Of a stretch of DNA of 64,000 nucleotides, positions 9,305-34,774 are shown one piece after another. The notes beneath the pieces are model-generated. The model was not told where the DNA came from, searched no databases, and saw only the letters and a program-made list of their open reading frames with translations. A program made the translations under genes and the position numbers. Position 1 is the first letter of the stretch. Each line of letters opens with the position of its first letter. This DNA is from an uncultured Gemmatimonadales bacterium (GTDB taxonomy: Bacteria; Gemmatimonadota; Gemmatimonadetes; Gemmatimonadales; GWC2-71-9): NCBI GenBank assembly GCA_963730185.1, contig CAVSQW010000012.1:288001-352000 (forward strand), given 5' to 3'.

Positions 9305-9640
9305 TCAGCCGCAGCAGCTGCCGAGCACGCGGAGCTTGCCTCGTCCCGCCGCCTTGTCGGTGGCCAGCACGCGGACGACGTCGTGCGCCTCCGCGAGGCC
9401 ATCGGGCGTGAGCGAGTAGTAGGACCACTTCCCCTCCCGGCGGTCGGTCACCAGGCCGGCCTCACGAAGCACCCTGAGGTGAAACGACAGCCGGGACTGG
9501 GCCGCCCCCAGCGAATCCTGGAGCTCGCAGACGCAGTGCTCGCCACCTCGAAGGCGGTCGAGGAGCGCCAGGCGGGTCTCGTCCGACAGCGCCTGGAAGA
9601 GCCGGGCGGCGCGGGCGAGGTCGAGGGCGGCGGTGGTCAT
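9305..9640 (-). CDS. arsR: ArsR/SmtB family transcriptional repressor
   Basis: FQALSDETRL, EHCVCEL, QSRLSFHLRVLREAGLV and a C-terminal CC pair. Confidence 0.93.
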   Translation of the reverse strand: MTTAALDLARAARLFQALSDETRLALLDRLRGGEHCVCELQDSLGAAQSRLSFHLRVLREAGLVTDRREGKWSYYSLTPDGLAEAHDVVRVLATDKAAGRGKLRVLGSCCG

Positions 9641-9647
9641 GACAACC

Positions 9648-9675
9648 ATCATATCAAAGAATCTTGATATGTCAA
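9648..9675 (-). promoter_or_regulatory. arsR sigma70-type promoter overlapped by ArsR operator
   Basis: Minus-strand TTGACA (9675-9670), 16 nt, TATGAT (9653-9648). Palindrome CATATCAA-N6-TTGATATG at 9650-9671. Confidence 0.8.
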
Positions 9676-9853
9676 GAGCAAGCCGGAACGGTCGCTTCAG
9701 CCAAGCCCTTCGAGGGGCGATCGCGGGACCTGCGTCGCCCGCCCGAGAGCGGGCCCCTCGTCGGCGTAGGATCCTGGGGCTCCGGCTTCGGCCGGTTTCG
9801 CGCGGGCGCCCGCCGAGTTGCGACGTCGCCCGGGCGCGCCCCATCTTCCCCTC

Positions 9854-14102: not shown

Positions 14103-14933
14103 TCAGAAGGTCGCGATCAGGGTGGCGGCGGTCTCGGGCCGTCGGGCCGGGTCGGCGTCCAGAGCCCGGGTTACGAAATCCTCCAACGCCCGGGAGCCGG
14201 TCCAACGACGGGCCGCGAGCGGCACGGCCGGCTCCCCGGCGACGATCCGGGCCCGGTAGGCCGCGTCGGACTCGCCGGGGCCGAGGTCGTGAGGCAGGTG
14301 CCCCGTAAGGAGCTCGTACAGCGTGGCGCCGAGACCGTACAGGTCCACCGCCGGGGAAGCATCGATCGGGGCCGCCAGCAGCTCCGGCGCGGCGTAGCCC
14401 AACGTTCCCACCGCTTCCTCGACCCAGCCCAACGGCAGGCCCCGCGGGGGGTGCCCGGTCGCGGCCACCCCCAGGTCCGCCAGCCGGACCGATCCGTCGT
14501 CCATCACCAGGACGTTACTCGGCTTGACGTCCCGGTGAAGCACGCCATGCTCGTGGAGCCAGGACAGAGCCTCACTCAGCTGTTTCGCGATGGCGGTCAC
14601 CGCGGGCTCGGGGAGCGGCACCGCCGCCGCGTCGCGCCCCCGGGGGTGGAGCCGATCGCGGAGACTGCCGCCGCCGGCCCATTCCAGGACCGTGAGCGGC
14701 GGTTCGTCGACGGCGTCGAAGCAGCGAATCAGGGAATGCGACCCGCCCAGCCGGGTCAGGAGCTCGCGCTCCAGCCTGAAGCGGAAGACGGCTTCGGGGG
14801 CGTCGTCGCGGGGGTGGAACCGCTTGAGCGCTACGCGCCCGCCGTTCGGCGCGAGGGCGTCCCAGACTTCGGTCGTGCCGCGTCCGGAATCGAGCCGGCG
14901 GCGGAGCGTGTAGCCGGCGGTCGAGCCGGACAC
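14103..14933 (-). CDS. Ser/Thr protein kinase (catalytic domain only), last gene of the T6SS operon
   Basis: VALKR, HRDVKPSN, DLG, GTLGYAAPE and DLYGLG motifs. Confidence 0.9.
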   Translation of the reverse strand: MSGSTAGYTLRRRLDSGRGTTEVWDALAPNGGRVALKRFHPRDDAPEAVFRFRLERELLTRLGGSHSLIRCFDAVDEPPLTVLEWAGGGSLRDRLHPRGRDAAAVPLPEPAVTAIAKQLSEALSWLHEHGVLHRDVKPSNVLVMDDGSVRLADLGVAATGHPPRGLPLGWVEEAVGTLGYAAPELLAAPIDASPAVDLYGLGATLYELLTGHLPHDLGPGESDAAYRARIVAGEPAVPLAARRWTGSRALEDFVTRALDADPARRPETAATLIATF

Positions 14934-14943
14934 CAGGATCCGT

Positions 14944-16098
14944 TCAGGTGTGGAGGAACTTGAGCCGGGACACCTCGGCGACGGTGATCTCGTCGCCGTC
15001 GTCGAGCCGGTAGTGCTCGCCCCGCTTGACCGGCTTGCCGTTCAGCGCGGTGCCGTTCATGCTTGCGTCGACCAGGTAGTAGTCCCCTTCCTTGCGGAGC
15101 AGGGTGCAGTGGAAGCGCGACACGAGCGCGCCCGAGTCGCTCACCACCAGGTCGTTCTTCTCGTCCTCACCCGGCCCCTGCGCCGCGCCGATCTTGAAGA
15201 CGCCCTTCTCGCGGTCGATCGTCACCAGCTTGCCCCGGCCGATGCCGTCGACGATCTGGAGCACGGCGGCCCGCTTGGCGGCCAGCTCGTCGGCCTTGCG
15301 CTGGCGCTCCTCGCGGTACTTGGCGCCCCAGCGCACCACGAGCACCAGCCCCGCCGCCAGGATGATCAGCACCGGCACGATGTAGAGCGCCTGGCGCTTG
15401 AGGTCGTCCATCCGCTTCGAGCGCTGGAGCTCGGACATGAGGCTCTTGGCCTCGGGATGGTTGGGATCCTGCTGAAGGACGGCGCCGAGGTGCTGCTCGG
15501 CGCTGGCCCAGTTCTTCGCGTTGATGTCGGCCCGGGCGGCACCGAGATGCGAGCGCACCACCTCGGTGGACTGCTGATCCGCCTTGCCGGCCTCGAGCGC
15601 CCTCGATCGGGCGGTCTGGAGGTCGTTCTGGGCCTGCTGGAGCCGCTGCTGGGCGACCTGGTTCTGGGGGTCGCGGAACACCACCTGGAGCCAGCGTTGG
15701 ATCCGCTCGTTGATGTGGGCGGTGGTGGTGTCGTCGGCGACGTCGGCGGCGATGGCCTGCTGGATGGCCTGGTCGAGCGCGGCTTTCTCCTCCGGCGAGA
15801 GCGTCCCGGCCGCGGCAGCGCTGGGCATAATCTGGGCCGGTGGCGCCTGCAGCTTGAGCGCCGGGGCGGCCGAGTCGGCCTGCTTGGCGCCCGAGTCGGC
15901 CTTGGGGCCGGCGGTCGGGGCCTGGACCGCGGGCGAGGCGCCGGGCGCCGGCGCCTCGGCCGGCGGCTTCTGAGCGGCCGCCGGCTCCTTCTTCTTCTTC
16001 TTGAAGAACGGCAGCGGGATCTGGGCGCTGGCCTCGGGGGCCAGGGCCAGCGCGAGCACCAGGCCCAGGAGCGTTGCCCGTTTGGTCGTGGTGGTCAT
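14944..16098 (-). CDS. signal peptide - helical/TPR - TM - FHA domain protein
   Basis: Signal peptide ending ASAQ, TPR-like LQQDPNHPEAKSLM, one TM, and C-terminal FHA (VSRFHC...DASMNGT..NG...LDDGDEI). Confidence 0.88.
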   Translation of the reverse strand: MTTTTKRATLLGLVLALALAPEASAQIPLPFFKKKKKEPAAAQKPPAEAPAPGASPAVQAPTAGPKADSGAKQADSAAPALKLQAPPAQIMPSAAAAGTLSPEEKAALDQAIQQAIAADVADDTTTAHINERIQRWLQVVFRDPQNQVAQQRLQQAQNDLQTARSRALEAGKADQQSTEVVRSHLGAARADINAKNWASAEQHLGAVLQQDPNHPEAKSLMSELQRSKRMDDLKRQALYIVPVLIILAAGLVLVVRWGAKYREERQRKADELAAKRAAVLQIVDGIGRGKLVTIDREKGVFKIGAAQGPGEDEKNDLVVSDSGALVSRFHCTLLRKEGDYYLVDASMNGTALNGKPVKRGEHYRLDDGDEITVAEVSRLKFLHT

Positions 16099-18848
16099 GA
16101 GACCCCCTCCGGCTGACCTCCCTCGGCGGCGCCGGCAGCCGCGCCGGTGGCGGCGTCGGCAGCCGCGCCGGTGGCGGCGTCGGCAGCCGCGCCGGTGGCA
16201 GCGTCGGCGGCTGCCGCCGCTTCCGCCGCCGCCGCTTCACGCTCGGCTTTGAGGCGCGCGGCCTCGTCCTCGACTTCCTTCGGCTCGCCGGCCAGGAGCG
16301 CGATCTCCTCGCCGTCCGGCACCACGCGGACCGCCATGCCGGGCCCCACGTCGCCCGCGATGATGAGTCGCGAGAGCGGGCTCAGGATGTGGCGATCGAT
16401 GGTCCGCTCCACCGGCCGGGCACCATAGACCGGATCGTAGGCCAGCCGGGCCAGGAGCGCCACGGCCTCGTCGTCGGCGTCGAGGGTCGCCTTGTGCTGA
16501 TCGAACAGCTGCCCGGCCAGGCTCTTGAGGTGCATCCGGACGATGACCTCCAGGGTGTCCTGCCCGAGCTCGTTGAACGGGATGACGCCGGACAGCCGGT
16601 TGAAGAGCTCGGGGCGGAGCGAGTCCTGCACCACCTTGAGGATGATCTCCTTCCGCTGCTCCGCGTCCTGGGCGACCGCGTTGGCTTCCTTCACGCCGAG
16701 GTTCGAGGTCAGCAGCACGATGGTGTTGGTGAAGTCGCAGAACCGGCCCTTGGCGTCGGTCAGTCGGCCTTCGTCCAGCACGCCGAGCAGGATGTCGATC
16801 ACCTCGGGATGGCCCTTTTCGATCTCGTCGAAGAGCACCACCGAGTAGGGCGAGCGGCGGACCTGTTCGGTCAGGAAACCGCCCTGCTCCGAGCCCACCA
16901 ACCCTGGCCGGGAGCCGATCAGGCCCGACACCGACCCGGAGTCCTTGTACTCCGCCATGTCGATCCGGATCAGGGCGCTCTCGTCGTCGAACAGCGCTTC
17001 GGCCAGGCCTTTGGCCAGCTCCGTCTTACCGACGCCGGTCGGGCCCACGAACAGAAACGAGGCGGGCTTCCGCTTCTTCCGGAGGTCGGTCCGCATCCGG
17101 CGGGCCGCTTCGGCCAGCGCGTCGACGGCGTCCTGCTGGCCGATCACCCGATCGGCGAGGCGTTCCTCGAGCTTGAGAAGCCGCTCGCGTTCGCTCTCCA
17201 TCATCCGCGAGATGGGGATCCCCGCCCGTCGCGCCACCACGTCGGCGATGTCGGTGGGACGCACCTCCTGGGGCACGAGGGGTCCGGCCTCGTTGACCTT
17301 GGCCTGGCGCTTCTCGAGGTCGGCCTCCTGCTCCTTGAGGAACTTGAGCGCGCCGTAGCGGATCTCGGCCGCGGCCGCCACGTCGCCGGAGGCCTCGGCC
17401 TGGGCCAGCTCGGCGTCTTTCTCCTGGATGGCTTTCCGGGTCTCCGCGAGGCCGGTGGTGACCGCCCGCTCTTCGTTCCACCGTTCCAGGATGCCGGCCA
17501 GCTCCGACTCGGCCGCCTTGACCTCTGTGGCCACGGCCTTGGGGTCGCCCTCGCCGCCGCCCTTGATCGCCTCGAGCCTGGCTTTGAGCCGGACCAGGGC
17601 CCGTTCCTTCTCGTCGATCAGGTTGGGCTTGGACTCGAGCTGCATCCGGAGCCGGGCGGCGGCCTCGTCGAGGATGTCGAACGCCTTGTCCGGGAAGAAG
17701 CGGTCGCGGAGGTGGCGGCGGGCCAACTTGACGGTGGCCTGGAGCGCGTCCTCGGTGATCCGAACCCCGTGGTGGGTCTCGTACTTGCTCTTGACGCCCC
17801 GGAGCATGGCCAGGGTCATCTCATCGTCGGGCTCCTCGACCACGATCCGCTCGAAGCGGCGGGCCAGGGCGCCGTCCTTCTCGATCGACTCGCGATACTC
17901 GTCGAAGGTCGAGGCCCCGACGCACTTGATCTCGCCCCGGGAGAGGGCCGGCTTGAGGATGTTGGCGGCGTCCATCCCGCCGGCGTTGCCGCCGGCGCCG
18001 ACCAGCGTGTGGATCTCGTCGAGGAAGAGGATCACGTCGGGCTGATCCTTCACCTCGTCGGCCACCGCCTTGATCCGCTCCTCGAATTCGCCCCGGTACT
18101 TGGCGCCGGCCACGAGGCCGGTCAGGTCCAGGGCGAGGAGGCGCGCGGCCCGGAGCGACTCCGGCACGTCGCCGGCCACGATCCGGAGCGCCAGGGCCTC
18201 GACCACCGCGGTCTTGCCGGTGCCGGGGTCGCCCACCAGCACCGGGTTACTCTTGGTCCGCCGAAGCAGGGTCTGTACGACTGAGCGGATCTCGATGTCA
18301 CGCCCGATCACCGGCATCAGCTTGCCGTCACGCGCCGCCTGGGTCAGGTCGCGGGTGAATCGCTCGAGGGTGCTGCCGCCTTCGCCGGGCTGCTCCTCGG
18401 TGGGCTGCATCACCTCGGGCGAGTCGAGCGCGGCGCCGAGGCGGTCGGCGGCCCAACCGCTGTCGCGGAGCGCGGGACCGAGGTCTCCCTGATCCGACCC
18501 GAGCGCGGCGAGGGCGACTTCGATGGGGCCGATGGTGTGGCCGCCGCGCTGGTCGGCCTGGGCGGTGGCCCGGTCGAGCAGGTCGCGGAGAGTCCGGCCG
18601 GCCACCGGCTGGCGGCCCGGCTCGAGCTTGACCGAGTCGGGCCCATCGGGCAGCGACTCGACCCGCCGAGCGGTGGCCGCCGCGTCGACCCCGAGCTTCC
18701 CGGCCAGCCGGCCGAGACCGCCCTTGGGATCGAGGAGGGCCAGCAGCAGGTGCTTGGCCTGGATGAAGGCGGCGCCCTGGCGGGCGGCGAGCCGCCGCGA
18801 TTCCTCCAGGGCCGCCGTCAGATCCATCGAAAGTCGGTTCAAATCCAT
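16095..18848 (-). CDS. tssH: ClpB-like AAA+ ATPase, putative sheath-recycling TssH
   Basis: Clp N-domain, GDPGTGKT, LFLDEIH, GAKYRGEFEER, coiled-coil middle domain, GPTGVGKT and LFDEIEK. Embedded in the operon. Confidence 0.85.
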   Translation of the reverse strand: MDLNRLSMDLTAALEESRRLAARQGAAFIQAKHLLLALLDPKGGLGRLAGKLGVDAAATARRVESLPDGPDSVKLEPGRQPVAGRTLRDLLDRATAQADQRGGHTIGPIEVALAALGSDQGDLGPALRDSGWAADRLGAALDSPEVMQPTEEQPGEGGSTLERFTRDLTQAARDGKLMPVIGRDIEIRSVVQTLLRRTKSNPVLVGDPGTGKTAVVEALALRIVAGDVPESLRAARLLALDLTGLVAGAKYRGEFEERIKAVADEVKDQPDVILFLDEIHTLVGAGGNAGGMDAANILKPALSRGEIKCVGASTFDEYRESIEKDGALARRFERIVVEEPDDEMTLAMLRGVKSKYETHHGVRITEDALQATVKLARRHLRDRFFPDKAFDILDEAAARLRMQLESKPNLIDEKERALVRLKARLEAIKGGGEGDPKAVATEVKAAESELAGILERWNEERAVTTGLAETRKAIQEKDAELAQAEASGDVAAAAEIRYGALKFLKEQEADLEKRQAKVNEAGPLVPQEVRPTDIADVVARRAGIPISRMMESERERLLKLEERLADRVIGQQDAVDALAEAARRMRTDLRKKRKPASFLFVGPTGVGKTELAKGLAEALFDDESALIRIDMAEYKDSGSVSGLIGSRPGLVGSEQGGFLTEQVRRSPYSVVLFDEIEKGHPEVIDILLGVLDEGRLTDAKGRFCDFTNTIVLLTSNLGVKEANAVAQDAEQRKEIILKVVQDSLRPELFNRLSGVIPFNELGQDTLEVIVRMHLKSLAGQLFDQHKATLDADDEAVALLARLAYDPVYGARPVERTIDRHILSPLSRLIIAGDVGPGMAVRVVPDGEEIALLAGEPKEVEDEAARLKAEREAAAAEAAAAADAATGAAADAATGAAADAATGAAAGAAEGGQPEGVS
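16134..16205. repeat. 3 x 24-nt tandem repeat encoding (AAADAATG)n tail of the ATPase
   Basis: GGCAGCCGCGCCGGTGGCRGCGTC at 16134, 16158 and 16182. Confidence 0.9.
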
Positions 18849-18862
18849 GGAGTGGTCCCTGC

Positions 18863-20497
18863 TCAGGGTTGCCCGCCGCGGCCGGGACGACGGAGCGTGA
18901 TCTTGGGCGTCGTGGGCTGCGGGGTCTGGGGCGGCGGTGGCGGCGGCGCGGGTGCGGGCCGAGGCGGGGCGGCACCGGCGGCCGACGGCGCCATGCCCGC
19001 CATGCCGAGCCGGCGGCGGAACAGCACCGCGCCGCGGAGGCTGTGGCCCGGCTGCACCGTCACCGTCAGTCCGTTGATCGTCGCGACGTCTTCGGGAGTA
19101 TCGAAGTTCATCGCGAAGTTCCGTTGACTCTCGAGCTCGCAGATGACGGTCCGGGTAATCGGCGAGCGGTGACCGCCGGCCGCGTTGACCCGGACGGTCA
19201 CGCTCAGCTCCTGCCCCGGCGCCCACTGGTAGCTCGACCGCGGGTCGCCGGTCAGCACGATCCGATACTCGTGCTTCCCGGCGAGGTCGAGCTGGCTGAA
19301 GACGAAGGTCAGGAGGTCGCCCTCGCGCTGCGGATGCGACGGCGAGGTGACCGCTTCGTAGAAGTGCTCGCCGTCGCGATCGAGCAGGAACTTGATCGAT
19401 TCGATGGCCCGGTTGATCCGGTAGTCGACGTACTTGCCGGCCAGCGCGTCGACCAGGTGGCGGAGCCGGGAGAGCGTCTCCGTCGCGCGGACCACCAGCG
19501 GGCGGAGCTCTTCCCGCCGATCGAGCTCCCGCTGGGTGGCCAGCACCCCGCGCTCGGCCTCGAGCAGCTCGGAATAGCTGGTGTCGACCTGGCTCAGGTC
19601 CTTGAAGAACTGGCGGCTCGACGACGAGAGCTCGAGGGCCAACGCCACCGTCCGCCCGGCCCGTTCGAGCTGTTGGAAGAACCGGTGCGGCGGCATCGCC
19701 AGGTCGGCCGTCTCGTAAGCGCACTGCTCGAGCGCCATGACCGCCCGCTCCACGAAGGCGCCGATGTCGACGTCGCTCCGAACGTCGACGCCCCGGGCCG
19801 CCACCTTCTCGGCGTAGCGGGCGGCGCTCCGGTGGATCTCCTGGTACTCGCCGACCAGGAGCCGGGCCTCCGATTGGAGCCGGGTGGCGGCGGTGTAGAG
19901 GGCGGTATGGGCCAGGAGCGAGGCGCAGGGCGGGATGTACTGCCCGTCGAGCTCGAAGCCGAGCGTCTCCGAGGCCCGGCGAAGCTTCCCCACCACCATC
20001 GACGACGACGCCAGCTCGGCCGGGAGGCCGAGGCGGACTTCGTACTTGGCCCGGCTGAGGGCGGCCTGGTTGGGATTCGAGGGATCGAGTCCCACCGAGG
20101 CCGGATCGTTCTCGCGCTCGCCGCTCCGGACCACGTACACCAGGGCATCGGTCACCCCGGCCAGGTCGCTCTTTCGCCAGTCGCCCTGCACCACCCGCGA
20201 CTCGTCGATCTCCACCAGCTCGCCGCCGGGGGTCACCCCGCGGGCCCGGAGGACCGAGACCCGGATCCGATCGGCCTCGTTCAGGACCTCGACCTTGGGG
20301 TCGTACTTGGCCAGGCCCTGCTCCACCGTCTCGAGCCGGACCCCACCGCCGACCAAGCCGGTGCCCGGGAGACAGTACTTGAGCAGCCAGGCAACCTGCT
20401 CTTCGACGTATCGGTCCTGACGCATGAAATGCTGCGGCGCGAGCAGCATTCCGGTGGTCCAGTTCACCGACTTGAAATAGTCGTCCCGTTGGGTCAC
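18863..20497 (-). CDS. tssK: T6SS baseplate protein TssK-like, C-terminally extended
   Basis: VNWTTGMLLAPQHFMRQDRY N-terminus and YIPPC motif typical of TssK. Confidence 0.8.
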   Translation of the reverse strand: MTQRDDYFKSVNWTTGMLLAPQHFMRQDRYVEEQVAWLLKYCLPGTGLVGGGVRLETVEQGLAKYDPKVEVLNEADRIRVSVLRARGVTPGGELVEIDESRVVQGDWRKSDLAGVTDALVYVVRSGERENDPASVGLDPSNPNQAALSRAKYEVRLGLPAELASSSMVVGKLRRASETLGFELDGQYIPPCASLLAHTALYTAATRLQSEARLLVGEYQEIHRSAARYAEKVAARGVDVRSDVDIGAFVERAVMALEQCAYETADLAMPPHRFFQQLERAGRTVALALELSSSSRQFFKDLSQVDTSYSELLEAERGVLATQRELDRREELRPLVVRATETLSRLRHLVDALAGKYVDYRINRAIESIKFLLDRDGEHFYEAVTSPSHPQREGDLLTFVFSQLDLAGKHEYRIVLTGDPRSSYQWAPGQELSVTVRVNAAGGHRSPITRTVICELESQRNFAMNFDTPEDVATINGLTVTVQPGHSLRGAVLFRRRLGMAGMAPSAAGAAPPRPAPAPPPPPPQTPQPTTPKITLRRPGRGGQP

Positions 20498-21402
20498 GCA
20501 GCACTCCTTGGCTCGGGACTGCCGAGATAGCTGTTCAGGCCCAGGGCGGCCTCATGCTCCGGATCGCCGAGCACGGCCGCCTCCGAGCGATTGCCGACGA
20601 TCCACCGCTCCGTCACGGTGGCGCGGAGATGCACCGGCAGCACCAGGCGGTAGATCGCGTCGCGCTGGCTCCGCTCGTCGGGCCGCTGCATCCGCCGGTA
20701 GGTCTCGAGGTCGACCGGGCCGATGTCGATCTCCACCGAGGTGCTGGCGGTGACGCCGTCGCCCACGATCGCGTCGATGCCCAGCCGGCCGTTCCGCCGG
20801 CCCAGCCGGGTCCGCCGCCCGGCCGAGACCGGGGCGATCCCGGAGACCAGCCGGACCGGGGATGCCGGCAGCCGGAATACCGAACGTAAGGCAATCGCCG
20901 GGCCGTCGGGACGGCCCGCGATCCGGGCCAGGGACGGCAGGAGCCGGGCCACGTCGTACCACCGCTCCCGGGGCCAGGGCGCGGCCGACAGTCGGAATAT
21001 CTCGGTGATCCAGCGGTTGGCGCCATCGGGGTCGTCGGGGTGGAGGTCGAGCAGCCCCCCCGCGGCCCGCAAATGGAGCTGGAGCTTGAGAAAATGGGTG
21101 TCGAAGAGGCCGAACAGCCGGTCGCTCCGGAATTCGCCCTCGGCGCTGTCGCGCATCGGGTAGGGCAGACTGTCGATCGCGCCCGAGCCGGCCACGGTCA
21201 GCACCACTCGGGTCTCCAGGGCGAGCTCGGTGCCGGCCGCCGGCGACTGCGACACCACCGTGCCCGGAGCCCAGCCCGGCCCCGCACTGTGCAAGGTGAT
21301 CCGATCGAGATCGACGCCCATCCGGAGCAGCGCCGGCACGGCGGAATCCACGGTGTGGCGGGCGCCGCGCCGGGGGGTGACCAGGTCGGGCATCGCGCTC
21401 AC
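20494..21402 (-). CDS. tssG: T6SS baseplate protein TssG-like with N-terminal PASTA-like segment
   Basis: DSLPYPM, RLFGLFD, TRLGRRNGRLG and IDIGPV motifs, LGLNSYLG end. Lies between tssF and tssK with 4-nt overlaps. Confidence 0.7.
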   Translation of the reverse strand: MSAMPDLVTPRRGARHTVDSAVPALLRMGVDLDRITLHSAGPGWAPGTVVSQSPAAGTELALETRVVLTVAGSGAIDSLPYPMRDSAEGEFRSDRLFGLFDTHFLKLQLHLRAAGGLLDLHPDDPDGANRWITEIFRLSAAPWPRERWYDVARLLPSLARIAGRPDGPAIALRSVFRLPASPVRLVSGIAPVSAGRRTRLGRRNGRLGIDAIVGDGVTASTSVEIDIGPVDLETYRRMQRPDERSQRDAIYRLVLPVHLRATVTERWIVGNRSEAAVLGDPEHEAALGLNSYLGSPEPRSAA

Positions 21403-23138
21403 CGGCCGTCGCCCTCCACCGGTACGATGGTGACCTCGATCCGATGCCCGATCATGGCTCGTTCGCTCAGGTACTGCTCCAGCTCGGTGCCCAGCCGCTC
21501 CAACTCGGCCTCGGGGTCGGCGAACTTGTCCCGGGGCGCGTGGGCGGTCACCCGGGTCACCAGCCCGAGGCCGGCGTCGGTAATCTCCGAGAGCGACTCC
21601 ACGTCGATCCGGGCCCGGTCGAGATTCGGCTCGAAGGCCCGGACCGCGATGTCGATGTCGGCCGCCGTGACCAGGCGGTCGCGGGTCCGGAGCATCTCGG
21701 CGAACCGGTCGCGGGCATCGGAGTAGCTGGGCGGCGCCGCGCCGCCCTTGGACGGCGTCAGGCTCGTGACCCGGGCGGTGGGATTGTTGGGCAGGTCGGT
21801 CCGGATCTGCTTCACCTCGCCGGGCGCGATCCCGTTGCCCTCGTCGCCGTCGCAGTAGAGCACCCGGAGCATGGCGTACGTCTCGAACCGCCCGCTCTCC
21901 TGCTTGGCCGGCGCGAATTCGAACTGGCCCCGGCCCCGGTAGCGATATCGTCCGGTGGCGGCCCGGGCCTCGAGGTCGCCGGTGGCGACGTAGGGATCGC
22001 CGTTCTCGCCCACCACCGAGAGCACCCCCATGACGTGGCGACGGTCCGAGCCCATCGGTCGGTGGGTTACCACCGATCCCATCCGATCGAAGTCGATCTG
22101 CTCGCTCCAGACCTCGATGTTGGAGACGGTGACGCAGTTGACCGCGATCCGGGTGACGGTATTGGCCACCCCGCGGAGTCCGGCCGGCAGGGGGATCTGC
22201 ACCCAGGCGAGCGGCCGATCCAGGGCCCGTTCCTGCCCCTGCGGGAGCAGCTTGGGCACCGCGCCGGCGACGGCCGGCGGGATCCGCGACCTGGTCCGTC
22301 GGTCACGGGGGATTTCAGGAAACACCCAGAGCCGCGAGCCGTAGACGCCGCCGACCAGCTGAATGGCCCGGGCCAGGGCGGACTCCGGCTCGGCGGCGCC
22401 GGGCGGCTCGCGGAAGAACTTGAGCCGCCACATGCCGCCCCGGGTCCGGGTGGAGCGGAGGATCCCGGGCTCGGTGACCACGCCGGCCTCGGAGAGGATT
22501 TGCCACGGGCTTCGCGCCAGGGCCGTCGCGACCTCGGCGCCGCGACCCGACACCTCGATGAAGACGCCGAGCCGGCTCAGGTGCGACTCGTCGGTCTCGA
22601 AGGCCAGGAGCAGCATCGGCGCCGGGTTGGTGAGATCCAGCGCCACGGAGTTGCCCGGGAGGACCGGCTGGTTGACCCACGGGAGGCGGGCGCCCGGGAT
22701 CGTCTGAAGCCGGCCACTCTCGTACACCCCCGCGAACACCAGCTCGGTGGGCGCAATCTCGATGGTTTCGTCGGGCGCGAAGACGATCTGCTCGCCGTTG
22801 GGCCGGTAGCCGATCAGCTCGATGTCGGGGGTGACCGGCTCGCGCTTCTGGACCTGGCTGAACTGGACCACCGCCTGCGCCGGACGGGCCAGCCGAGCCG
22901 GCAGACCCAGCCCGCGGATCAAGTCATCGAGCGCGGCGGCGAAGAAGACGTGGTCGGCCTCCCGGTAGATCGTGTCGATCTGATGAGCCAGGGCGTGGAA
23001 CACCGAGCCCAGGACCGGGTCGGGCAGGGTCTGCCCGCCGGTCTGCTGGTACATCTCCCGGGTAAACGCCTCGCGCAGCTGCCGCGCGATGTCGGCGGCG
23101 CTCCGTCCGGCGGGTCTCAGGCTCTGGCCCTGCTCCAC
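21399..23138 (-). CDS. tssF: T6SS baseplate protein TssF-like (gp6/baseplate J-like)
   Basis: DPVLGSVFHALA, ARPAQAVVQ, IAVNCVTVSN and LRTRDRLVTAADI motifs. 579 aa, after vgrG. Confidence 0.78.
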   Translation of the reverse strand: MEQGQSLRPAGRSAADIARQLREAFTREMYQQTGGQTLPDPVLGSVFHALAHQIDTIYREADHVFFAAALDDLIRGLGLPARLARPAQAVVQFSQVQKREPVTPDIELIGYRPNGEQIVFAPDETIEIAPTELVFAGVYESGRLQTIPGARLPWVNQPVLPGNSVALDLTNPAPMLLLAFETDESHLSRLGVFIEVSGRGAEVATALARSPWQILSEAGVVTEPGILRSTRTRGGMWRLKFFREPPGAAEPESALARAIQLVGGVYGSRLWVFPEIPRDRRTRSRIPPAVAGAVPKLLPQGQERALDRPLAWVQIPLPAGLRGVANTVTRIAVNCVTVSNIEVWSEQIDFDRMGSVVTHRPMGSDRRHVMGVLSVVGENGDPYVATGDLEARAATGRYRYRGRGQFEFAPAKQESGRFETYAMLRVLYCDGDEGNGIAPGEVKQIRTDLPNNPTARVTSLTPSKGGAAPPSYSDARDRFAEMLRTRDRLVTAADIDIAVRAFEPNLDRARIDVESLSEITDAGLGLVTRVTAHAPRDKFADPEAELERLGTELEQYLSERAMIGHRIEVTIVPVEGDGR

Positions 23139-23141
23139 GGA

Positions 23142-24992
23142 TCAGCCCTGCCTCGGGGTATCGGGATCCGCGGTTCGGGTGGCCACGGCGTCTTCCGGCG
23201 TCGTCCGCGTACCCAGGTCGGTCGAGTCGACCTTGACCTGATTGGTCGGCACCGGCTTGCCGGCGAACCCGGGCGGCTGCACGTGCACCATCCCGCCCAC
23301 GATCGCGTTCAGGGCGCCGGCCACCGACTCGACGTTCATGTTCCCCTTCAGCGCCACGTTCATGCCGTTGAGCGTCGCGTCGCGACCGGCCTTGAGGGTC
23401 AGGGCGCCGGTGACCTCGAGGTAGTCGTCGCCGCTCACCTTCTTGAGCGACGGGCCCGACACGACCTGGGTGAAGCTCTTCGACTTCATCCTGAGCTCGC
23501 CCTCGGCCTCGAGGGCGATGTCGCCCCCGGACTTGATCGTGATCACCGGGGTGTCGCCGTTGGTCAGCTGCACCATGCACTTGCCTTCGGGCGTGAAGAC
23601 CTCGATGGTCTCCGCCCCGTCGTCGTCGAGCAGCTGGATGGTGTTGCCGCTCCGGGTAATGATCCGCTTGGCGGTATTCCCCGAGGTCGGCTCCGGCGCC
23701 TGGTCGAGACCGTTCCAGAGCCCCCCCACCACCACCGGGAACTCGGGATCGCCGGCCAGGAAGACCACCAGCACCTCATCGCCGATTTCGGGGATGAACA
23801 TCATGCCCCGTCCGTTCCCGGTGTGCGGAGTGGCCAGCCGAGCCCAGTAGGACTGCTCGTCGCCGCCGCTCCACCGATACTGCACCCGGACCCGACCCAT
23901 CTTCGACGGGTCCTCGTTGTCGATCACCTCGGCCGCGATCGGCCCCGCGATGGCGACCCGGGCCGGGGCCTGATAGCTGGTGAACGTCTTCCAGGGCGTG
24001 GCCTCGAACCGGTTGAGGTACTGCTGGTCCTTGAAGGTGTTCGTGATCCGGGTGATCCCCAGCTTGCCGGTGGTGGCCAGCTGGAAGTCCTTCCCCTCGA
24101 TCAGGTTCACCAGATCGCCCGCCTGGAGGCCGGGCTTGCCGGACACGCACTCGACCCGGAGCGCTCCGCCCATCGCCCGCTCGCTCTCCTGTCGGAGCTT
24201 GGCCTTGAACTCAGCGTGGTCGGTGGACACCGCGAACGGCTCCGCCAGGATCGGGTCGCCGCCCCCGGCATACCCTCGGGCCAGGTCATTGACCGTGGCG
24301 ACCAGCTTGGCCGCCCCACCCAGGGTTGCCGGGTTGGACCGGATGCCGGCGTGGGCGTGGGTCGACTTCTCCTTCAGGTCGTAGCTCGCGCCCGTCACGC
24401 CGTTGTTCACGGGCCGGGCCCGGGCTGTGACCTCGATGAGCGACTCACCCCAGATCAGATCCCAGCCCTTGTCGACGAACTCGTTCCGGATCTCGACCTG
24501 GGGACCCGATGTCACCAGAAAGCAGCCGGCCTCGTCGGCCAGGCGCTTCAAGAACTCGAACTCGGTCTCGCCCCACTGGACGAAGTCGAAGGGATCGGCG
24601 GCCGGGAGTTTGGCCACGACCTTGACGCCCAGCTTGGTGGCGACGTCGCCCAGCTTGGCGCGGGGGAAATGCCGGGTGTCCCGGAACTCGTGCCGGATCG
24701 AGGGCGAGACGCAGTCGAGCACGAACCGGGCGCCGAAATGGAGCAAGTGGCTCTGGGCCCCGTCGGCGACGACGCCCTGAAAGATCTCGAGCGGATCGGC
24801 CTCGTCCTCCTGCACGGTCACGCTGACCGGGGCCCGGAGCAGGTCCTCGAGGGCCACGGTTTGGGCCCGGTCGCGGGTGAACTCGATGGCGCAGCGGGTG
24901 TGCTCTCCGAGCTCCTGCACCACCTCGAGCGATTCCACTTCGCTGTTTCTGAGCACCAGGTCGCCGATGCTGACCCGGATGATGACTTTCAT
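23142..24992 (-). CDS. vgrG: VgrG spike protein
   Basis: VQWGETEFEFLKRLA hub, gp5 OB-fold DNEDPSKMGRVRVQY..WARLA..FIPEIGDEVLVVF..GDPEFPVVVG, then a beta-helix region. Confidence 0.93.
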   Translation of the reverse strand: MKVIIRVSIGDLVLRNSEVESLEVVQELGEHTRCAIEFTRDRAQTVALEDLLRAPVSVTVQEDEADPLEIFQGVVADGAQSHLLHFGARFVLDCVSPSIRHEFRDTRHFPRAKLGDVATKLGVKVVAKLPAADPFDFVQWGETEFEFLKRLADEAGCFLVTSGPQVEIRNEFVDKGWDLIWGESLIEVTARARPVNNGVTGASYDLKEKSTHAHAGIRSNPATLGGAAKLVATVNDLARGYAGGGDPILAEPFAVSTDHAEFKAKLRQESERAMGGALRVECVSGKPGLQAGDLVNLIEGKDFQLATTGKLGITRITNTFKDQQYLNRFEATPWKTFTSYQAPARVAIAGPIAAEVIDNEDPSKMGRVRVQYRWSGGDEQSYWARLATPHTGNGRGMMFIPEIGDEVLVVFLAGDPEFPVVVGGLWNGLDQAPEPTSGNTAKRIITRSGNTIQLLDDDGAETIEVFTPEGKCMVQLTNGDTPVITIKSGGDIALEAEGELRMKSKSFTQVVSGPSLKKVSGDDYLEVTGALTLKAGRDATLNGMNVALKGNMNVESVAGALNAIVGGMVHVQPPGFAGKPVPTNQVKVDSTDLGTRTTPEDAVATRTADPDTPRQG

Positions 24993-25017
24993 TGCGGTCC
25001 TCCCTGGGGCCTGGGGC

Positions 25018-25377
25018 CTAGCCCGCGGCCATTTCCCCGAACAGGGCCTTGCCTTCGGGTGACTCTATCGTCAACCGGAAGGCGCGCCGGCCGTCGACGC
25101 CGAAGGTCCCGGTGGTGATCGACTGGACCCGATACCCTGCCACGCCCAGGTTGCCGAGGGCCGCGTTGATGGCGTCCTGCAACCCTTCGTGATCGGTCCG
25201 ATCGCGACGGGCCGCTTCGGTGAAGGCCTCGAGCAGCCCGAACCAGGGCGCGTGGGGCCAGGCCCGACTCGACGTGCCGGCCATCACCTGAACGAGACCC
25301 AGTATCGCGTCGAAGCCCTCCTGCTCGACGAAACGTCCCTGAGGGGTGATCCGGAGCGGAAGGGCTATCGATCGCAT
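25018..25377 (-). CDS. tssE: TssE/gp25-like baseplate protein
   Basis: 119 aa with IALPLRI start and PWFG motif, between tube and spike genes. Confidence 0.6.
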   Translation of the reverse strand: MRSIALPLRITPQGRFVEQEGFDAILGLVQVMAGTSSRAWPHAPWFGLLEAFTEAARRDRTDHEGLQDAINAALGNLGVAGYRVQSITTGTFGVDGRRAFRLTIESPEGKALFGEMAAG

Positions 25378-25395
25378 GATCGGGCCGGGTGGGGC

Positions 25396-25416
25396 GGTCG
25401 GTCCAGCGGACCGACC
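25396..25416. terminator. hairpin between tssD and tssE
   Basis: GGTCGGTCC-AGC-GGACCGACC, 9-bp stem. No U-tract. Confidence 0.5.
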
Positions 25417-25431
25417 ACCCGTCGACGGCGC

Positions 25432-25872
25432 TTACTTCGTGAACTTGTGCTTCGAGACGTTCGACTCGTCGACCGCCACCACCAGCTCGAGCTTGAGCAG
25501 GTTCTTGAAGCCGATCTGTGAGGTCGAAACGGTCTCGGTCGCGATCACCGGGTTCCCCACCTCGAAGTGGGAGATCCAGCCCATGAACTCGACCGCGTGC
25601 AGCACCTTGTCGGCTTCGTCCATATAGTAGGTGATCTCGCACTTGTGGAGCGGATCCTTGCTCTCGGTCGCGATCTTCCACAGCTCGATCTGCTGCGACG
25701 GCGAGAGGTTGTCGATCACGCTCGCGTCCATCCAGATGTCCACCCGACCGACCATCGAGTCGCCGATCCGGCGACCGACCTGGTTGGCGTTCCGGGCGAT
25801 CCGGTAGGTGGCCTGAACGGGTCGGAACTCGATGCTATCGATCTTGACCTTGACGCGGTTGTACGTGGCCAT
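25432..25872 (-). CDS. tssD: T6SS-iii-type tube protein TssD (Hcp)
   Basis: YRIARNANQVGRRIGDSMVGRVDI and CEITYY..EADKVLHAVEF.GWISHF resemble Bacteroidota TssD. Strong GGAGAG RBS. Confidence 0.75.
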   Translation of the reverse strand: MATYNRVKVKIDSIEFRPVQATYRIARNANQVGRRIGDSMVGRVDIWMDASVIDNLSPSQQIELWKIATESKDPLHKCEITYYMDEADKVLHAVEFMGWISHFEVGNPVIATETVSTSQIGFKNLLKLELVVAVDESNVSKHKFTK

Positions 25873-25912
25873 GGTTCTCTCCAGTAAGGGTTGCGGCTCA
25901 AGCGCCGGGGGT

Positions 25913-26299
25913 TCAGAGGCCGAACAACTTCTTCATCCTCCCTAAGAGCGACGCGGGGGCGTCACTTTCCCTCATGCCGGGGTCGGGGACGGATGGGGCG
26001 GCTGCCTCGGCCGCCGGCGAGGCCGGAGCCTCGACGGACGGACTCGCGGCCTCAGCCCTGGGCGCGGGCCGGAATTCGAATTCGGGATCGCGCTCGGTGC
26101 GCGCCTGGTGGCGCGACGAGAAGTTGAGCACCGACATCCGGGTCTTGTCGCCCCGGGCCAAGTGGCCCGAGCCGTCCATCCGACGCTCGACCCGGATGTT
26201 GCCGCGCTCTTGCTTGGTGTACCGGAGGTCGGGCTTCCGGGTTCCGTCGGGGTTCGCCAACGGGTCGGGCGCCTCGGCCTCCTGGTCGTCAGCCGACAT
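25913..26299 (-). CDS. hypothetical protein with C-terminal amphipathic helix
   Basis: 128 aa, GAGG RBS, ends SLLGRMKKLFGL. Lies between tssC and tssD. Confidence 0.7.
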   Translation of the reverse strand: MSADDQEAEAPDPLANPDGTRKPDLRYTKQERGNIRVERRMDGSGHLARGDKTRMSVLNFSSRHQARTERDPEFEFRPAPRAEAASPSVEAPASPAAEAAAPSVPDPGMRESDAPASLLGRMKKLFGL

Positions 26300-26317
26300 G
26301 GATTACCTCGCTTATCG

Positions 26318-27664
26318 TCAGCCTTCGGCGCCCTTCTTGAAGTCCGGGGTATCGATCTTGAGCTCGAAGGTTTCCGCCGGTCCGACGGGCAGCACCTCGA
26401 GATTGATGTCGAGTACCCCCTGGGCGAACTTGTCCTCGTCCATGTCGATGTCGAGCGAATACTTGTAGATCGTCCCGCCCTTGAGCTCGTCTTCCAGGAA
26501 CTCCTCGATCGGGTTCCGGACCTGCTCCTTCACCAGATCGCGGGTCAGCCGCTGCTCCGCCACCCGGCGGAGGTAGACGGAGATTCGCCGCTCCAGGTAG
26601 CGAAGGACCCGGTACGACGTAAAGAACTTGAGCACCCCCTTGGGGTCCTCGGCCTGGGTCCGGCTCCCGACGAAACAGAGCTGGTTCGAGTCGTCGCGGA
26701 TCATGCAGAGCACCTGCCGCTCCATGGTCAGGTGCTCCATCTGGGAGATCCGGGGCTCGATCCGGGACTTCTCCACCCCGCGGATCTGCCCGAAGATCAT
26801 CCCGACCGGGCCTTGAGCGATCCCGCCGCCGGTGGTCCGGTCGGTCCGGGCCAGACAGCCGGCGAAGAGCAGCGAGGCCGGCGAATAGAGATCGGGGTCG
26901 TCGACGTCGCCGTCGGCCTTCTCGAACCAGTGGCGGTCGCGGAGCTTCACGGTCCCGGCGATCACCACGTCGGCGGCCGCCTTGTCCTCGGGGCGCTTCA
27001 GGAACTCGTAGGCGCCGCCGTCGGTCCGGAACTGGTCGGAGAGCTGCTTGAAGTTCTTCTCGTCCTTGAGGTCGCCGATCAGCAGCATGCCCCACTGGCT
27101 GGCAATGTCCTCGAGCCGCTTCCGGACGTTGTCGGGTACATAACCCGGCAAAACCAGGTTGCAGATGAACTGCCGGAAGTTGAAGGTGTCGTTCCGGCTC
27201 TGAATGAACTCGTCCAGCGCCTCGATGGTGGAGCTGTTGACGTCGCTGGTGATGACCTTGGTATCGGCGTTGAAGATGTAGAACTCCACCGGCGGCCGTT
27301 GCTGCGAGTCGCGGACCTCGGCGTTCTCGAAGAAGAGCTGGAGCTGCCGGTAGCTCCGCTCGATCGGCCGGATCTTCTCGTAGATCTGGGCCAGCACGTC
27401 ATCGCGGAGCGCCTCCATCGAGGCGATCTGCTCGTCGAGCTTCTTCAAGGCCTGTTCGTAGCTGTCCTTGGTGGAGAGCAGGCTGGAGAAGTCGGCGACC
27501 CGCTTGAGGAACTGGCCGGCGCTCTCGGCGGTGAAGATGTCCTTGAGCGCGGTCTTGGCCGGCGCGGGGTGAATGACGTTGAAGATCTCCTCGATCGCCT
27601 TCCCGGCCGCGCGCTTGCCGATGATGTCCTGCGCGCTCTTGACCATCACTTTCTCGTCGCTCAC
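26318..27664 (-). CDS. tssC: T6SS-iii-type large sheath protein TssC (DUF5458-like)
   Basis: IERSYRQLQLFFENAE, LVLPGYV, LYSPASLLFAG and SYRVLRYL motifs, with a sheath-type C-terminus. Confidence 0.85.
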   Translation of the reverse strand: MSDEKVMVKSAQDIIGKRAAGKAIEEIFNVIHPAPAKTALKDIFTAESAGQFLKRVADFSSLLSTKDSYEQALKKLDEQIASMEALRDDVLAQIYEKIRPIERSYRQLQLFFENAEVRDSQQRPPVEFYIFNADTKVITSDVNSSTIEALDEFIQSRNDTFNFRQFICNLVLPGYVPDNVRKRLEDIASQWGMLLIGDLKDEKNFKQLSDQFRTDGGAYEFLKRPEDKAAADVVIAGTVKLRDRHWFEKADGDVDDPDLYSPASLLFAGCLARTDRTTGGGIAQGPVGMIFGQIRGVEKSRIEPRISQMEHLTMERQVLCMIRDDSNQLCFVGSRTQAEDPKGVLKFFTSYRVLRYLERRISVYLRRVAEQRLTRDLVKEQVRNPIEEFLEDELKGGTIYKYSLDIDMDEDKFAQGVLDINLEVLPVGPAETFELKIDTPDFKKGAEG

Positions 27665-28131
27665 GCCTCACCTCCCGACAGCCGCTTGAGCGCGTCCTGG
27701 AACTCGCCCAGAGCCTCGATGATCTCTTTCCGCTGATCGTCGTTCTCCCAAGCCCGCCGCACCGCGAGCACCGAGAACCGCTCCCGCATCCGGTGCAGGA
27801 GATCGATCTGGCTCTGGAGATCGGCCAGGTCGTTCCGCTTGCCCGGGGTCCGGGAGCCGATCTTCTTGGGATCGAAGTCCTTGAGGCTGTTGAACTCGAG
27901 ATCGGCGACGAACTCGGTGCCCTCTTCCCCGACGGTCGTCTTGAAGTCGAGGGCGGGCTTGAACTTGTCGAAGGCCTCCTGGAGGTCGGAGACCTTGGTC
28001 GGGCCCTCATCCTCGGGGCATTCCTCTCCCACCCGCTCGACGGTCATCGGCATGACGGTCGCCGTGGTTTCGGTGGGAACCTGACGGGGCGCCTGTTTGA
28101 CGCCGGCACGGGTGACTTTGACGACTGGCAT
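27661..28131 (-). CDS. tssB: T6SS-iii-type small sheath protein TssB
   Basis: LQEAFDKFKP, LEFNSLKDFDPKKI and a C-terminal helical hairpin. 4-nt overlap with tssC. Confidence 0.82.
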   Translation of the reverse strand: MPVVKVTRAGVKQAPRQVPTETTATVMPMTVERVGEECPEDEGPTKVSDLQEAFDKFKPALDFKTTVGEEGTEFVADLEFNSLKDFDPKKIGSRTPGKRNDLADLQSQIDLLHRMRERFSVLAVRRAWENDDQRKEIIEALGEFQDALKRLSGGEA

Positions 28132-34519: not shown

Positions 34520-34540
34520 CGGCTCGCCGCCGGAGGGTGC

Positions 34541-34774
34541 CTAACGTCCGGGCTCGACCGACTCGCCGGTTCGGCAGAGCTGGTAGAGCTTCCGGTCGGT
34601 GAGCCGGGCCCAGGCCTCGGGGTACTCGATCACGCGCAACACCTCGCTCGGGGATTCACAGCGGAGCGACCGGAACATGGTGCCCTGATTCTCTTCGGTC
34701 ACCCGGAAGAGGAGATCGCCATTCTCGTCGAGGATCTGTCGCACCGGGGGGCCGGCAGGACGGGACTCGGTCAT
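34541..34774 (-). CDS. small hypothetical protein
   Basis: 77 aa with GAGGTG RBS, in operon context. Confidence 0.6.
   Translation of the reverse strand: MTESRPAGPPVRQILDENGDLLFRVTEENQGTMFRSLRCESPSEVLRVIEYPEAWARLTDRKLYQLCRTGESVEPGR

Follow-up and report, generated by a model that had tools for sequence, protein, structure and literature searches.

A T6SS-iii-like contractile injection operon in Gemmatimonadales and its relatives in Acidobacteriota

Gene content of the operon

The stretch of DNA analysed here (64,000 nucleotides of contig CAVSQW010000012.1, hereafter the window) belongs to a Gemmatimonadales metagenome-assembled genome (MAG) of 5.27 Mb in 17 contigs, which is 81.8% complete and in which the window lies on contig C12. 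On its minus strand, between positions 14103 and 28131, the lists of open reading frames (ORFs) contain 12 co-oriented and densely packed genes for the parts of a type VI secretion system (T6SS), in the order TssB, TssC, an unknown protein of 128 residues, tube, gp25/TssE-like protein, VgrG, TssF, TssG with an N-terminal PASTA domain, TssK, ClpV, FHA protein and kinase. By their coordinates the genes overlap by 4 nucleotides (nt) at four junctions (TssB/TssC, TssF/TssG, TssG/TssK and ClpV/FHA) and are separated by 3–54 nt at the others, which bears out the co-oriented and mostly coupled arrangement of 12 genes that an initial annotation had described. Each of the 12 core ORFs is intact.

The sheath is in two parts, with the VipA and PF17541 families falling on neighbouring, overlapping genes. 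The small subunit TssB (156 residues, 27661–28131) matches T6SS_VipA with 25 bits and TIGR03358 with 24 bits, the latter below its cut-off, and the large subunit TssC (448 residues, 26318–27664) matches PF17541, formerly DUF5458, with 77.8 bits (cut-off 25) over profile positions 20–415 of 430, with no VipB match. They are followed by a low-complexity protein of 128 residues (25913–26299) without any Pfam or NCBIfam match, whose homologues (9 tblastn matches at a coverage of at least 60%) all lie in Gemmatimonadota-type loci, and then by two proteins that match no family and are assigned by fold: a tube protein with the TssD/Hcp fold (146 residues, 25432–25872) and a gp25/TssE-like baseplate wedge (119 residues, 25018–25377). 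The VgrG spike (616 residues, 23142–24992; Phage_base_V 92 bits, Phage_GPD, TIGR01646 115 bits) is the sole VgrG found in the genome, in which one tube gene was found as well. Next come a TssF-like baseplate protein (579 residues, 21399–23138) with no Pfam match and a C-terminus that matches TIGR02243 with 41 bits; the PASTA-bearing TssG (302 residues, 20494–21402; T6SS_TssG 40.6 bits, PASTA 26.6 bits); and TssK (544 residues, 18863–20497; T6SS_VasE 27.8 bits, TIGR03353 70.7 bits, below cut-off), which ends in a proline-rich C-terminal tail. A baseplate set comprising TssE, TssF, TssG and TssK is thus present together with the VgrG spike.

The AAA+ ATPase of the ClpV type (917 residues, 16095–18848) contains Clp_N, AAA, AAA_lid_9, AAA_2 and ClpB_D2-small domains. 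Its likely start, read from the sequence, is the ATG at 18848, 14 nt past the TssK stop, and the ORF of 1469 residues given in the ORF list is an upstream read-through of the same frame. This double AAA+ protein scores higher against the ClpB model TIGR03346 (915 bits) than against the ClpV1 model TIGR03345 (696 bits, cut-off 885), in both cases below the cut-off, and its position in the operon supports its identity as ClpV. The last two genes encode a bitopic FHA protein (14944–16098; FHA 54.7 bits, TPR_19, Yop-YscD_cpl 25 bits), for which hydropathy indicates a signal-like N-terminus, a TPR-like periplasmic part, a transmembrane (TM) segment at residues 237–255 and a cytoplasmic FHA domain, and a soluble Ser/Thr kinase (276 residues, 14103–14933; Pkinase 127.9 bits) with no TM segment. 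The NCBIfam T6SS models match TssB, VgrG, TssG, TssK and ClpV, each under its curated cut-off; the system is divergent. A promoter scan of the locus gave 0 sigma-70-like sites, and terminator-like sites numbered 9 against 5.8 ± 2.1 expected, with nothing usable among them.

Some relatives of the window system encode TssB and TssC in a single ORF of 555–584 residues (e.g. L025 5078–6882 in genome G402, and the proteins P0121, P0125, P0131 and P0133). These are natural sheath fusions, and comparably long forms are also encountered among Bacteroidota-type proteins.

Host and residence of the operon

The initial annotation had taken the host to be Gemmatimonadota-like rather than a member of the Bacteroidota, and this agrees with the origin of its relatives: among the 120 TssC matches listed, those close homologues that are named belong to "Gemmatimonadales bacterium" MAGs, with 77–94% identity, and 42 of 80 related loci come from records labelled Gemmatimonadota or Gemmatimonadales (see below). 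The observation that the codon style of the operon resembles that of its flanks also holds, as the GC content at third codon positions is 0.82–0.95 in the 12 operon genes and 0.80–0.95 in the flanking genes.

A search of 41 relatives detected TssC in 13 of them, with 11 of 21 positive in the same genus and 0 of 16 in the two other families of the order; across the phylum, PF17541 occurs in 10 of 401 sampled genomes and 7 of 147 genera. The identity of TssC to the window copy falls with host distance, from 85–89% within the genus (one partial copy, truncated by a contig end and 87% identical, was left out of this range) to 81–83% in other genera of the family and 76–79% in other families. The T6SS-i sheath family PF05943 is present in 41 of the 401 sampled genomes and in none of the 10 with PF17541, a non-overlap that is not significant since chance alone predicts about one shared genome. 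Because the codon usage equals that of the flanks and TssC identity drops with host distance, old residence with many losses fits better than recent import. That the operon is a T6SS-iii island recently acquired from Bacteroidota is, in our view, hardly credible. The patchy distribution, both within the genus and across the phylum, would suit such an event, but the codon usage would not; the identity of TssC to full-length proteins with strong PF17541 scores, which are of the Bacteroidota type, is mostly 21–30%, TssC forms phylum-specific subclades in which identity follows host relatedness, and the accessory gene set is a different one.

Identification of the tube and gp25-like proteins by fold

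For the two proteins without family matches, alignments were made with homologues from related loci (A4, 27 rows, for the tube; A5, 31 rows, for the gp25-like protein), and each protein was then folded. The AlphaFold2 model of the tube has a pLDDT of 85.6, and its best Foldseek match is Flavobacterium johnsoniae Hcp1 (6bdc; E 2.7e-5, TM-score 0.60/0.70), next to which comes Bacteroides fragilis Hcp (8gra), and then the Hcp proteins of T6SS-i and the tubes of extracellular contractile injection systems (eCIS). The tube profile, when compared with PDB sequences, matches only "Bacteroidales T6SS protein TssD" (E 0.008), and hhalign pairs it with the TssD of B. finegoldii at 92% probability, while PF17642, the Pfam model of TssD, has no match in the genome at E≤1. 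The modelled fold and these profile matches identify the protein of 146 residues as the tube. The model of the gp25-like protein has a pLDDT of 86.1 and no Foldseek match at E≤0.001; its fold was recognised by VIA-align only, and by this fold the protein of 119 residues is the gp25/TssE wedge protein.

Acidobacteriota-type loci encode two tandem tube paralogues (L090, L092 and L104; in the last they are 158 and 149 residues long, at 11872–12864). In their place the window has the unknown gene of 128 residues, followed by the single tube gene.

Affinity of the contractile core

To place the components among the T6SS subtypes, profiles built from the related loci were searched against reference loci. 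T6SS-iii, reportedly defined by Russell et al. in 2014, was represented by four annotated Bacteroidota loci (Hymenobacter, Bacteroides, Capnocytophaga and Runella) and T6SS-i by two Gemmatimonadota loci. The TssC profile matches the T6SS-iii loci with E-values of 3e-25 to 8e-19 and has no T6SS-i match at E<1; the tube profile matches T6SS-iii at 1.6e-6 and nothing in T6SS-i; and the TssF profile matches T6SS-iii at 8e-16, with no T6SS-i match below 0.27. The VgrG profile favours T6SS-iii (5e-62) over T6SS-i (9e-38), the TssB profile is nearly equidistant (1.3e-8 and 2.6e-5, respectively), and the TssG, TssK and ClpV profiles match both subtypes. The TssF of B. finegoldii is aligned to the TssF family by hhalign at 95% over 486 columns. 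A HMMER search of 1.84 billion representatives yielded only 154 clusters at E≤0.001, and of the 79 full-length ones among them 72 contain PF17541, 7 lack it (six without any family and P0148 with VipA only) and none contains PF05943, the VipB-type TssC family, which has no match in the window's own genome either.

Thus, as judged by sequence comparison, the contractile core is of the T6SS-iii kind, firmly so for TssC, reasonably for the tube, TssF and VgrG, and ambiguously for TssB. The claim of the initial annotation that TssB, TssC and TssD all match subtype iii accordingly stands for TssC, whereas the tube fails PF17642 and is tied to the subtype only through weak profile matches and its fold, and TssB lies about as close to T6SS-i as to T6SS-iii.

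A system that is not anchored in a membrane, that is, a cytoplasmic or extracellular injection system (eCIS, T6SS-iv-like or tailocin-like) with T6SS-like parts, might also be considered here, as the TssF C-terminus matches TIGR02243, a baseplate family of phage tail regions, eCIS tubes and baseplates are found among the structural matches, and no membrane complex is recognisable (see below). We regard it as very improbable: the sheath has separate TssB and TssC subunits and matches no phage-sheath Pfam family; TssK and a ClpV-type unfoldase are encoded in the operon; the Pfam and NCBIfam matches of the 12 operon genes include no tape-measure, tail-fibre or cap family; and several linked inner-membrane proteins carry cytoplasmic FHA domains.

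Phylogeny of TssC

In a FastTree phylogeny of 99 TssC rows, the window sequence belongs to a clade of 35 rows (support 88) and the Bacteroidota-type sequences form another of 48 rows (support 100). An IQ-TREE analysis of 51 rows under LG+C20 PMSF recovers the window clade with 24 rows (SH-aLRT 99) on a stem of 0.82, along with a Bacteroidota clade of 14 rows (SH-aLRT 98), which holds the four annotated Bacteroidota TssC proteins and a Prevotella-type cluster, and three more small PF17541-type clades. The members of the window clade are from Gemmatimonadota and Acidobacteriota (Terriglobia), or are unlabelled metagenomic proteins. In the approximately unbiased (AU) test, joining the window clade to the core Bacteroidota TssC costs 51.6 log-likelihood units (p-AU 8.5e-5). 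In these trees the window TssC is thus not nested in the Bacteroidota T6SS-iii clade.

Spread beyond Gemmatimonadota

A pattern scan limited to a single genome for each species confirmed 107 loci, and 80 of them were retained. By record title 42 of the retained loci belong to Gemmatimonadota (Gemmatimonadales and Longimicrobiales) and 33 to Acidobacteriota (Terriglobia), and 5 have another label or none; these five show identities like those of the two main groups and probably reflect errors of binning or labelling. Cultured carriers are Granulicella mallensis X5P3, Granulicella sp. S156 and Terriglobus sp. 2YAB30_2. The Acidobacteriota TssC is about 52% identical to that of the window, and TssB, TssC, tube, TssF, TssG, TssK and ClpV recur in the Acidobacteriota loci, the gp25-like gene being encountered less often; VgrG was found within 10 kb in 0 of 34 of them by tblastn and in 2 of 37 by profile. 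The lineage is therefore common to Gemmatimonadota and Acidobacteriota and is not one of Gemmatimonadota alone.

Four loci carry unexpected labels, namely Bacillota (L076), Heliomicrobium (L084), Janthinobacterium lividum (L099) and Verrucomicrobia (L115). Their identities are either 84% (Gemmatimonadales-like) or 51–54% (Terriglobia-like), and they are probably mis-binned or mislabelled MAG contigs.

Search for known membrane complexes

None of the membrane complexes of other T6SS was recognised. Searches of the genome with TssM (TIGR03348), TssL (TIGR03349) and TssA (PF06812) gave no match over cut-off at its completeness of 81.8%, in line with the initial annotation, by which T6SS-iii lacks these proteins; for the T6SS-iii complex, TssN (PF17555), TssO (PF17561) and TssR (PF17643) gave no match over cut-off in the genome either, the best TssN score being 16 bits on another contig. 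Five carrier genomes of 95–98% completeness contain neither TssM (0/5) nor TssN (0/5). Bacteroidota TssN, TssO, TssP, TssQ and TssR were also used as phmmer queries against all 37,485 genomic ORFs; the one match was a PKD protein at E 0.3, and the positive controls retrieved TssC, TssB and VgrG only. Comparisons by hhalign of 12 accessory families with the same five proteins gave no probability above 20%, and these negatives carry little weight where homology is very remote. For TssP and TssQ the negative result comes from single-sequence phmmer and shallow hhalign, methods of limited sensitivity as judged by these controls.

According to the accessible text of PMC10781749, tssN lies systematically between tssK and tssG in Bacteroidota, and TssN is a polytopic protein with 5 TM segments and a cytoplasmic globular domain. 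In the window tssF, tssG, tssK and clpV are contiguous, with no gene in between and no tssG-tssK-tssN synteny. These observations bear on a rival explanation, in which the locus is an ordinary T6SS-iii member whose TssN, TssO, TssP, TssQ and TssR have diverged past recognition; the linked VWA, FHA and polytopic proteins described in the next section would then be their counterparts, T6SS-iii would extend past Bacteroidota, and a new subtype would be superfluous. Several facts are in keeping with it: TssC shares its Pfam family with the Bacteroidota TssC, T6SS-iii supplies the nearest matches of the tube, TssF and VgrG, TssN as described above loosely resembles one of the linked membrane proteins (the Ubl-4TM-FHA protein, see below), and the sequence methods used demonstrably overlook some true homologues. 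Nevertheless, the long TssC stem and the exclusion from the Bacteroidota clade, the lack of TssN near tssG and tssK where Bacteroidota synteny would place it, and the low hhalign probabilities of the accessory families all argue against it, and so does the finding that the accessible parts of the literature attribute no VWA, FHA or PASTA domain to a T6SS-iii component. On balance we hold this explanation to be unlikely.

Lineage-specific membrane partners

Directly upstream of tssB, and overlapping each other by 4 nt, lie the genes of two membrane proteins on the minus strand. The first (28378–29694) is a VWA protein (39.8 bits) with a signal peptide-like N-terminus, a periplasmic VWA domain and a C-terminal TM segment at residues 369–387. 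The second (29691–30830) is a protein of 379 residues with a ubiquitin-like domain at its N-terminus, about four TM segments and an FHA-like domain at its C-terminus, which we term Ubl-4TM-FHA after these TM segments and its profile matches to PDB entries, namely ubiquitin-like chains (E 1e-3), the four-TM protein NDUFA11 (E 3e-4) and FHA domains (E 0.1). The window copy has no Pfam match, and a Pfam FHA domain is detected in 4 of 21 members of its family. In the ESM Atlas it has its own Gemmatimonadota cluster in addition to FHA-bearing clusters that score below 0.9 and are to be taken as leads only. A prediction of its complex with TssK returned a score of 0.00, which counts neither way.

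Among loci with enough flanking sequence, the VWA gene is upstream of tssB in 24 of 31 of the Gemmatimonadota type and 31 of 34 of the Acidobacteriota type. With tblastn the Ubl-4TM-FHA gene is seen in the same place in 20 of 27 loci of the Gemmatimonadota type, and with a profile, to which four Acidobacteriota rows contributed, in 31 of 31 of the Acidobacteriota type. Some Gemmatimonadota genomes have the two genes at another site near the cluster. Neither protein has a counterpart in the four T6SS-iii or the two T6SS-i reference loci. The N-terminal PASTA domain of TssG is likewise a feature of the lineage: 22 of 26 members of the clade have it, against 0 of 5 reference TssG proteins (three of T6SS-iii and two of T6SS-i). 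PASTA domains are usually extracytoplasmic and related to peptidoglycan, although here the domain is borne by a cytoplasmic baseplate protein.

The divergent flank of the Acidobacteriota-type clusters encodes a ThiF/E1-like protein, a UBC/E2-like protein and two small unknown proteins in all 25 loci with at least 7 kb upstream (e.g. L104 3254–6917 in Granulicella mallensis X5P3), and a kinase is found there too in 18 of the 25. E1/E2-like genes are present in 0 of 22 Gemmatimonadota-type loci. As the adjacent membrane protein has a ubiquitin-like N-terminal domain, a link between the T6SS and ubiquitin-like conjugation is conceivable.

In the window a pyridoxal phosphate-dependent decarboxylase gene (30906–32400, minus strand; Pyridoxal_deC, E 1.4e-54) is inserted between the Ubl-4TM-FHA gene and that of a Zn-ribbon kinase. 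Near the clusters of relatives one weak match to it was found, with 37% identity.

The wider Gemmatimonadota unit and its candidate cargo

The co-oriented block extends up to position 36731, and linked plus-strand genes are located at 9818–11029 and 42608–53485, outside the operon, so that the functional unit exceeds the 12 genes. This wider unit was compared over 40 kb in six Gemmatimonadota genomes and in the 80 loci. At 9818–11029 (plus strand) lies the gene of a second FHA membrane protein (FHA 24.5 bits), with a cytoplasmic FHA domain, a TM segment at residues 147–165 and a periplasmic C-terminal domain; it was matched beside the cluster, partly or fully, in 6 of 6 Gemmatimonadota genomes over 40 kb. 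A long minus-strand ORF at 9305–11029, with a C-terminal ArsR-type helix-turn-helix domain, overlaps this gene, and the true ArsR-type gene probably consists of its last ~115 codons, at about 9305–9650.

On the minus strand upstream of the decarboxylase, Pfam matches identify a Zn-ribbon Ser/Thr kinase with a TM segment (32402–34519), a Sel1-repeat protein (34810–35385) and a Zn-ribbon/TM/PEGA protein (35415–36731); PEGA and Sel1 homologues adjoin the cluster in related Gemmatimonadota loci. An ORF of 77 residues on the same strand, listed between the Zn-ribbon kinase and Sel1 genes (within 32402–36731), has no similarity to an ORF of 93 residues in the Granulicella locus. Elsewhere in the genome, contig C7 shows at least 13 tblastn matches to a Ser/Thr kinase query over ~47 kb (~578000–626000), on both strands and with a spacing of 2–6 kb (mostly 2–3 kb), a pattern suggestive of densely clustered kinase paralogues.

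Further along, a spike-loading module (41738–43687, mixed strands) comprises an ORF of 112 residues (minus), a DUF4123 adaptor gene (minus) and a PAAR protein (ORF 42608–43687, plus; PAAR_motif 85.7 bits at residues 78–143). It is followed on the plus strand by two paralogous sets (44138–47534 and 48397–53485), each recognised by Pfam as a PG_binding_1 protein, an OmpA-like protein and a large protein, with sizes of 215/408/517 and 236/586/873 residues, respectively. These proteins lack clear signal peptides, and that of 873 residues, for which the ESM Atlas was uninformative, has a single hydrophobic segment at residues 85–107. Homologous sets occur beside tssB or PAAR in Gemmatimonadota relatives, in one of them just upstream of tssB and in the orientation of that gene, and are conserved across genera at 33–51% identity; none was found within 10 kb in the Acidobacteriota loci. 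The sets are either conserved cargo that binds the wall of the prey or components of the envelope: the PAAR/DUF4123 neighbourhood favours cargo, and the conservation across genera would also suit a structural role.

Interpretation and significance

Taken together, the locus is likely to encode an intact T6SS of an undescribed lineage, whose contractile core is related to the T6SS-iii of Bacteroidota without being nested within it. The separate TssC clade, the presence of PF17541 as the only large-sheath family and the result of the AU test support the proposal of the initial annotation that this is either a long-resident, divergent T6SS-iii-like lineage or a new subtype. From the sequence evidence the system is real and probably functional; whether it merits a subtype name will turn on a rooted tree of several genes and on how the machine is anchored.

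Several points weigh against this view. The group used in the AU test was named after the tree had been seen, the tree is rooted on three very distant VipB sequences only, and the branching order of the five PF17541-type clades, and hence the designation "sister of T6SS-iii", is not resolved; many members of the window clade and the three small clades are without a taxonomic label, the single organism name among the cluster members listed being that of a Bacteroidota cluster, and a search for homologues of P0155 recovered this protein only. The sequence methods miss true homologues, since the Pfam TssD model missed the tube and hhalign missed the TssE and TssG controls, and the completeness of the MAG limits what its searches can find. 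No outer-membrane component was identified among the linked genes, so that an envelope-spanning complex is only a candidate. No RNA run was found carrying the locus, and the best DNA run holds 0.34 of its words and the others at most 0.09. Finally, the DUF4123 gene (42073–42700, minus strand) is spread over three frames, which cover profile positions 1–72, 58–85 and 78–117; this is a pseudogene with two frameshifts or else a gene affected by indel errors in the MAG assembly.

The broken DUF4123 gene, the single VgrG and single tube genes and the want of an RNA run could all be read as signs of a decaying or repurposed relic that has lost secretion. This appears distinctly improbable given the 12 intact core ORFs with their coupled junctions and the possible origin of the frame breaks in assembly errors. 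Moreover, the gene set is kept across two phyla at 25–85% identity, which implies purifying selection.

The known roles of the families suggest that TssB and TssC would assemble into a sheath enclosing the TssD tube, with TssE, TssF, PASTA-TssG, TssK and VgrG tipped by PAAR as the baseplate beneath it; contraction would expel the tube, the spike and the cargo, and ClpV would recycle the contracted sheath. The domains and topology of the other proteins hint that the soluble kinase, together with as many as three FHA domains tethered to the membrane, could form a phospho-threonine switch that licenses assembly, much as in the H1-T6SS of Pseudomonas, and that the periplasmic VWA and TPR-like domains might have a sensory role or belong to a docking complex replacing TssJLM or TssNOPQR. 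The PAAR/DUF4123 module and the peptidoglycan-binding proteins may supply cargo for contact-dependent antagonism.

More tentatively, and with the odds somewhat against it, the lineage could be a fifth T6SS subtype with a third, independent mode of envelope anchoring, in which a VWA and Ubl-4TM-FHA hub, FHA-TM proteins and a PASTA-TssG would dock the baseplate and Ser/Thr phosphorylation would gate it. If this is true, then together with TssJLM and TssNOPQR it would mean that the contractile core has repeatedly recruited unrelated membrane complexes. PMC10781749 poses as an open question which membrane complex, if any, belonged to the ancestral T6SS, one of the T6SS-i type or one of the T6SS-iii type, and a deep T6SS-iii-related lineage with neither known membrane complex bears on that question, which the cultured carriers make experimentally testable.

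Current classifications recognise T6SS-i to T6SS-iv, and standard models of the TXSScan type would therefore overlook this system, or assign it wrongly, in two soil phyla that are abundant. Its presence suggests that contact-dependent antagonism may occur in those Gemmatimonadota and Terriglobia that lack T6SS-i. The T6SS of Gemmatimonadetes described in the accessible portions of PMC9113992 is a plasmid-borne T6SS-i of subtype i4b, and no description of the present lineage was found in the literature searched, which covered few subscription journals and excluded supplementary tables.

Comparison with known systems

Two linked proteins share with the type III ring proteins YscD and PrgH the combination of a cytoplasmic FHA domain, one TM segment and a periplasmic domain. 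Their matches to Yop-YscD_cpl (25 and 19 bits) are below cut-off and mainly reflect the FHA fold, with no ring-building domains shown, so that the likeness is a lead only. With T6SS-iv and the eCIS (Afp, PVC and Amoebophilus) the window system has in common homologous tube, gp25-like and baseplate folds, but it differs from them in its split sheath, its ClpV-type ATPase and TssK and the lack of a match to any phage-sheath, tape-measure or fibre family.

T6SS-i is the same machine in overall terms, and the TssB, TssG, TssK and ClpV profiles match the T6SS-i proteins of Gemmatimonadota; however, a VipB-type TssC, TssM, TssL and TssA were not detected in the window's genome, and the TssC, tube and TssF profiles miss the T6SS-i loci. 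The H1-T6SS of Pseudomonas aeruginosa is controlled by a threonine-phosphorylation switch and, like the window locus, encodes an FHA protein and a Ser/Thr kinase, and the periplasmic VWA domain of the window lineage recalls PpkA. In contrast to the H1-T6SS, the window has a soluble kinase, and separate membrane proteins bear its VWA and FHA domains.

The closest resemblance is to the T6SS-iii of Flavobacterium johnsoniae and Bacteroides fragilis (GA1-3), with which the window system shares a PF17541 TssC, the nearest profile matches of the tube, TssF and VgrG, the presence of a ClpV-type ATPase, TssE, TssG, TssK and PAAR, and a genome in which TssA, TssL and TssM are not detected. It departs from T6SS-iii in its separate TssC clade, in having no detectable TssN, TssO or TssR, in a tube that fails the Pfam model of TssD, and in the VWA protein, Ubl-4TM-FHA protein, PASTA-TssG, FHA proteins and Ser/Thr kinases that characterise the window lineage. 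The hosts also differ: the present lineage is one of Gemmatimonadota and Acidobacteriota, whereas T6SS-iii, which the initial annotation had called a system described from Bacteroidota, is stated to be restricted to that phylum in the accessible parts of PMC4793230, PMC10781749, the preprint 10.1101/2024.05.07.592589 and PMC13098142 (2026).

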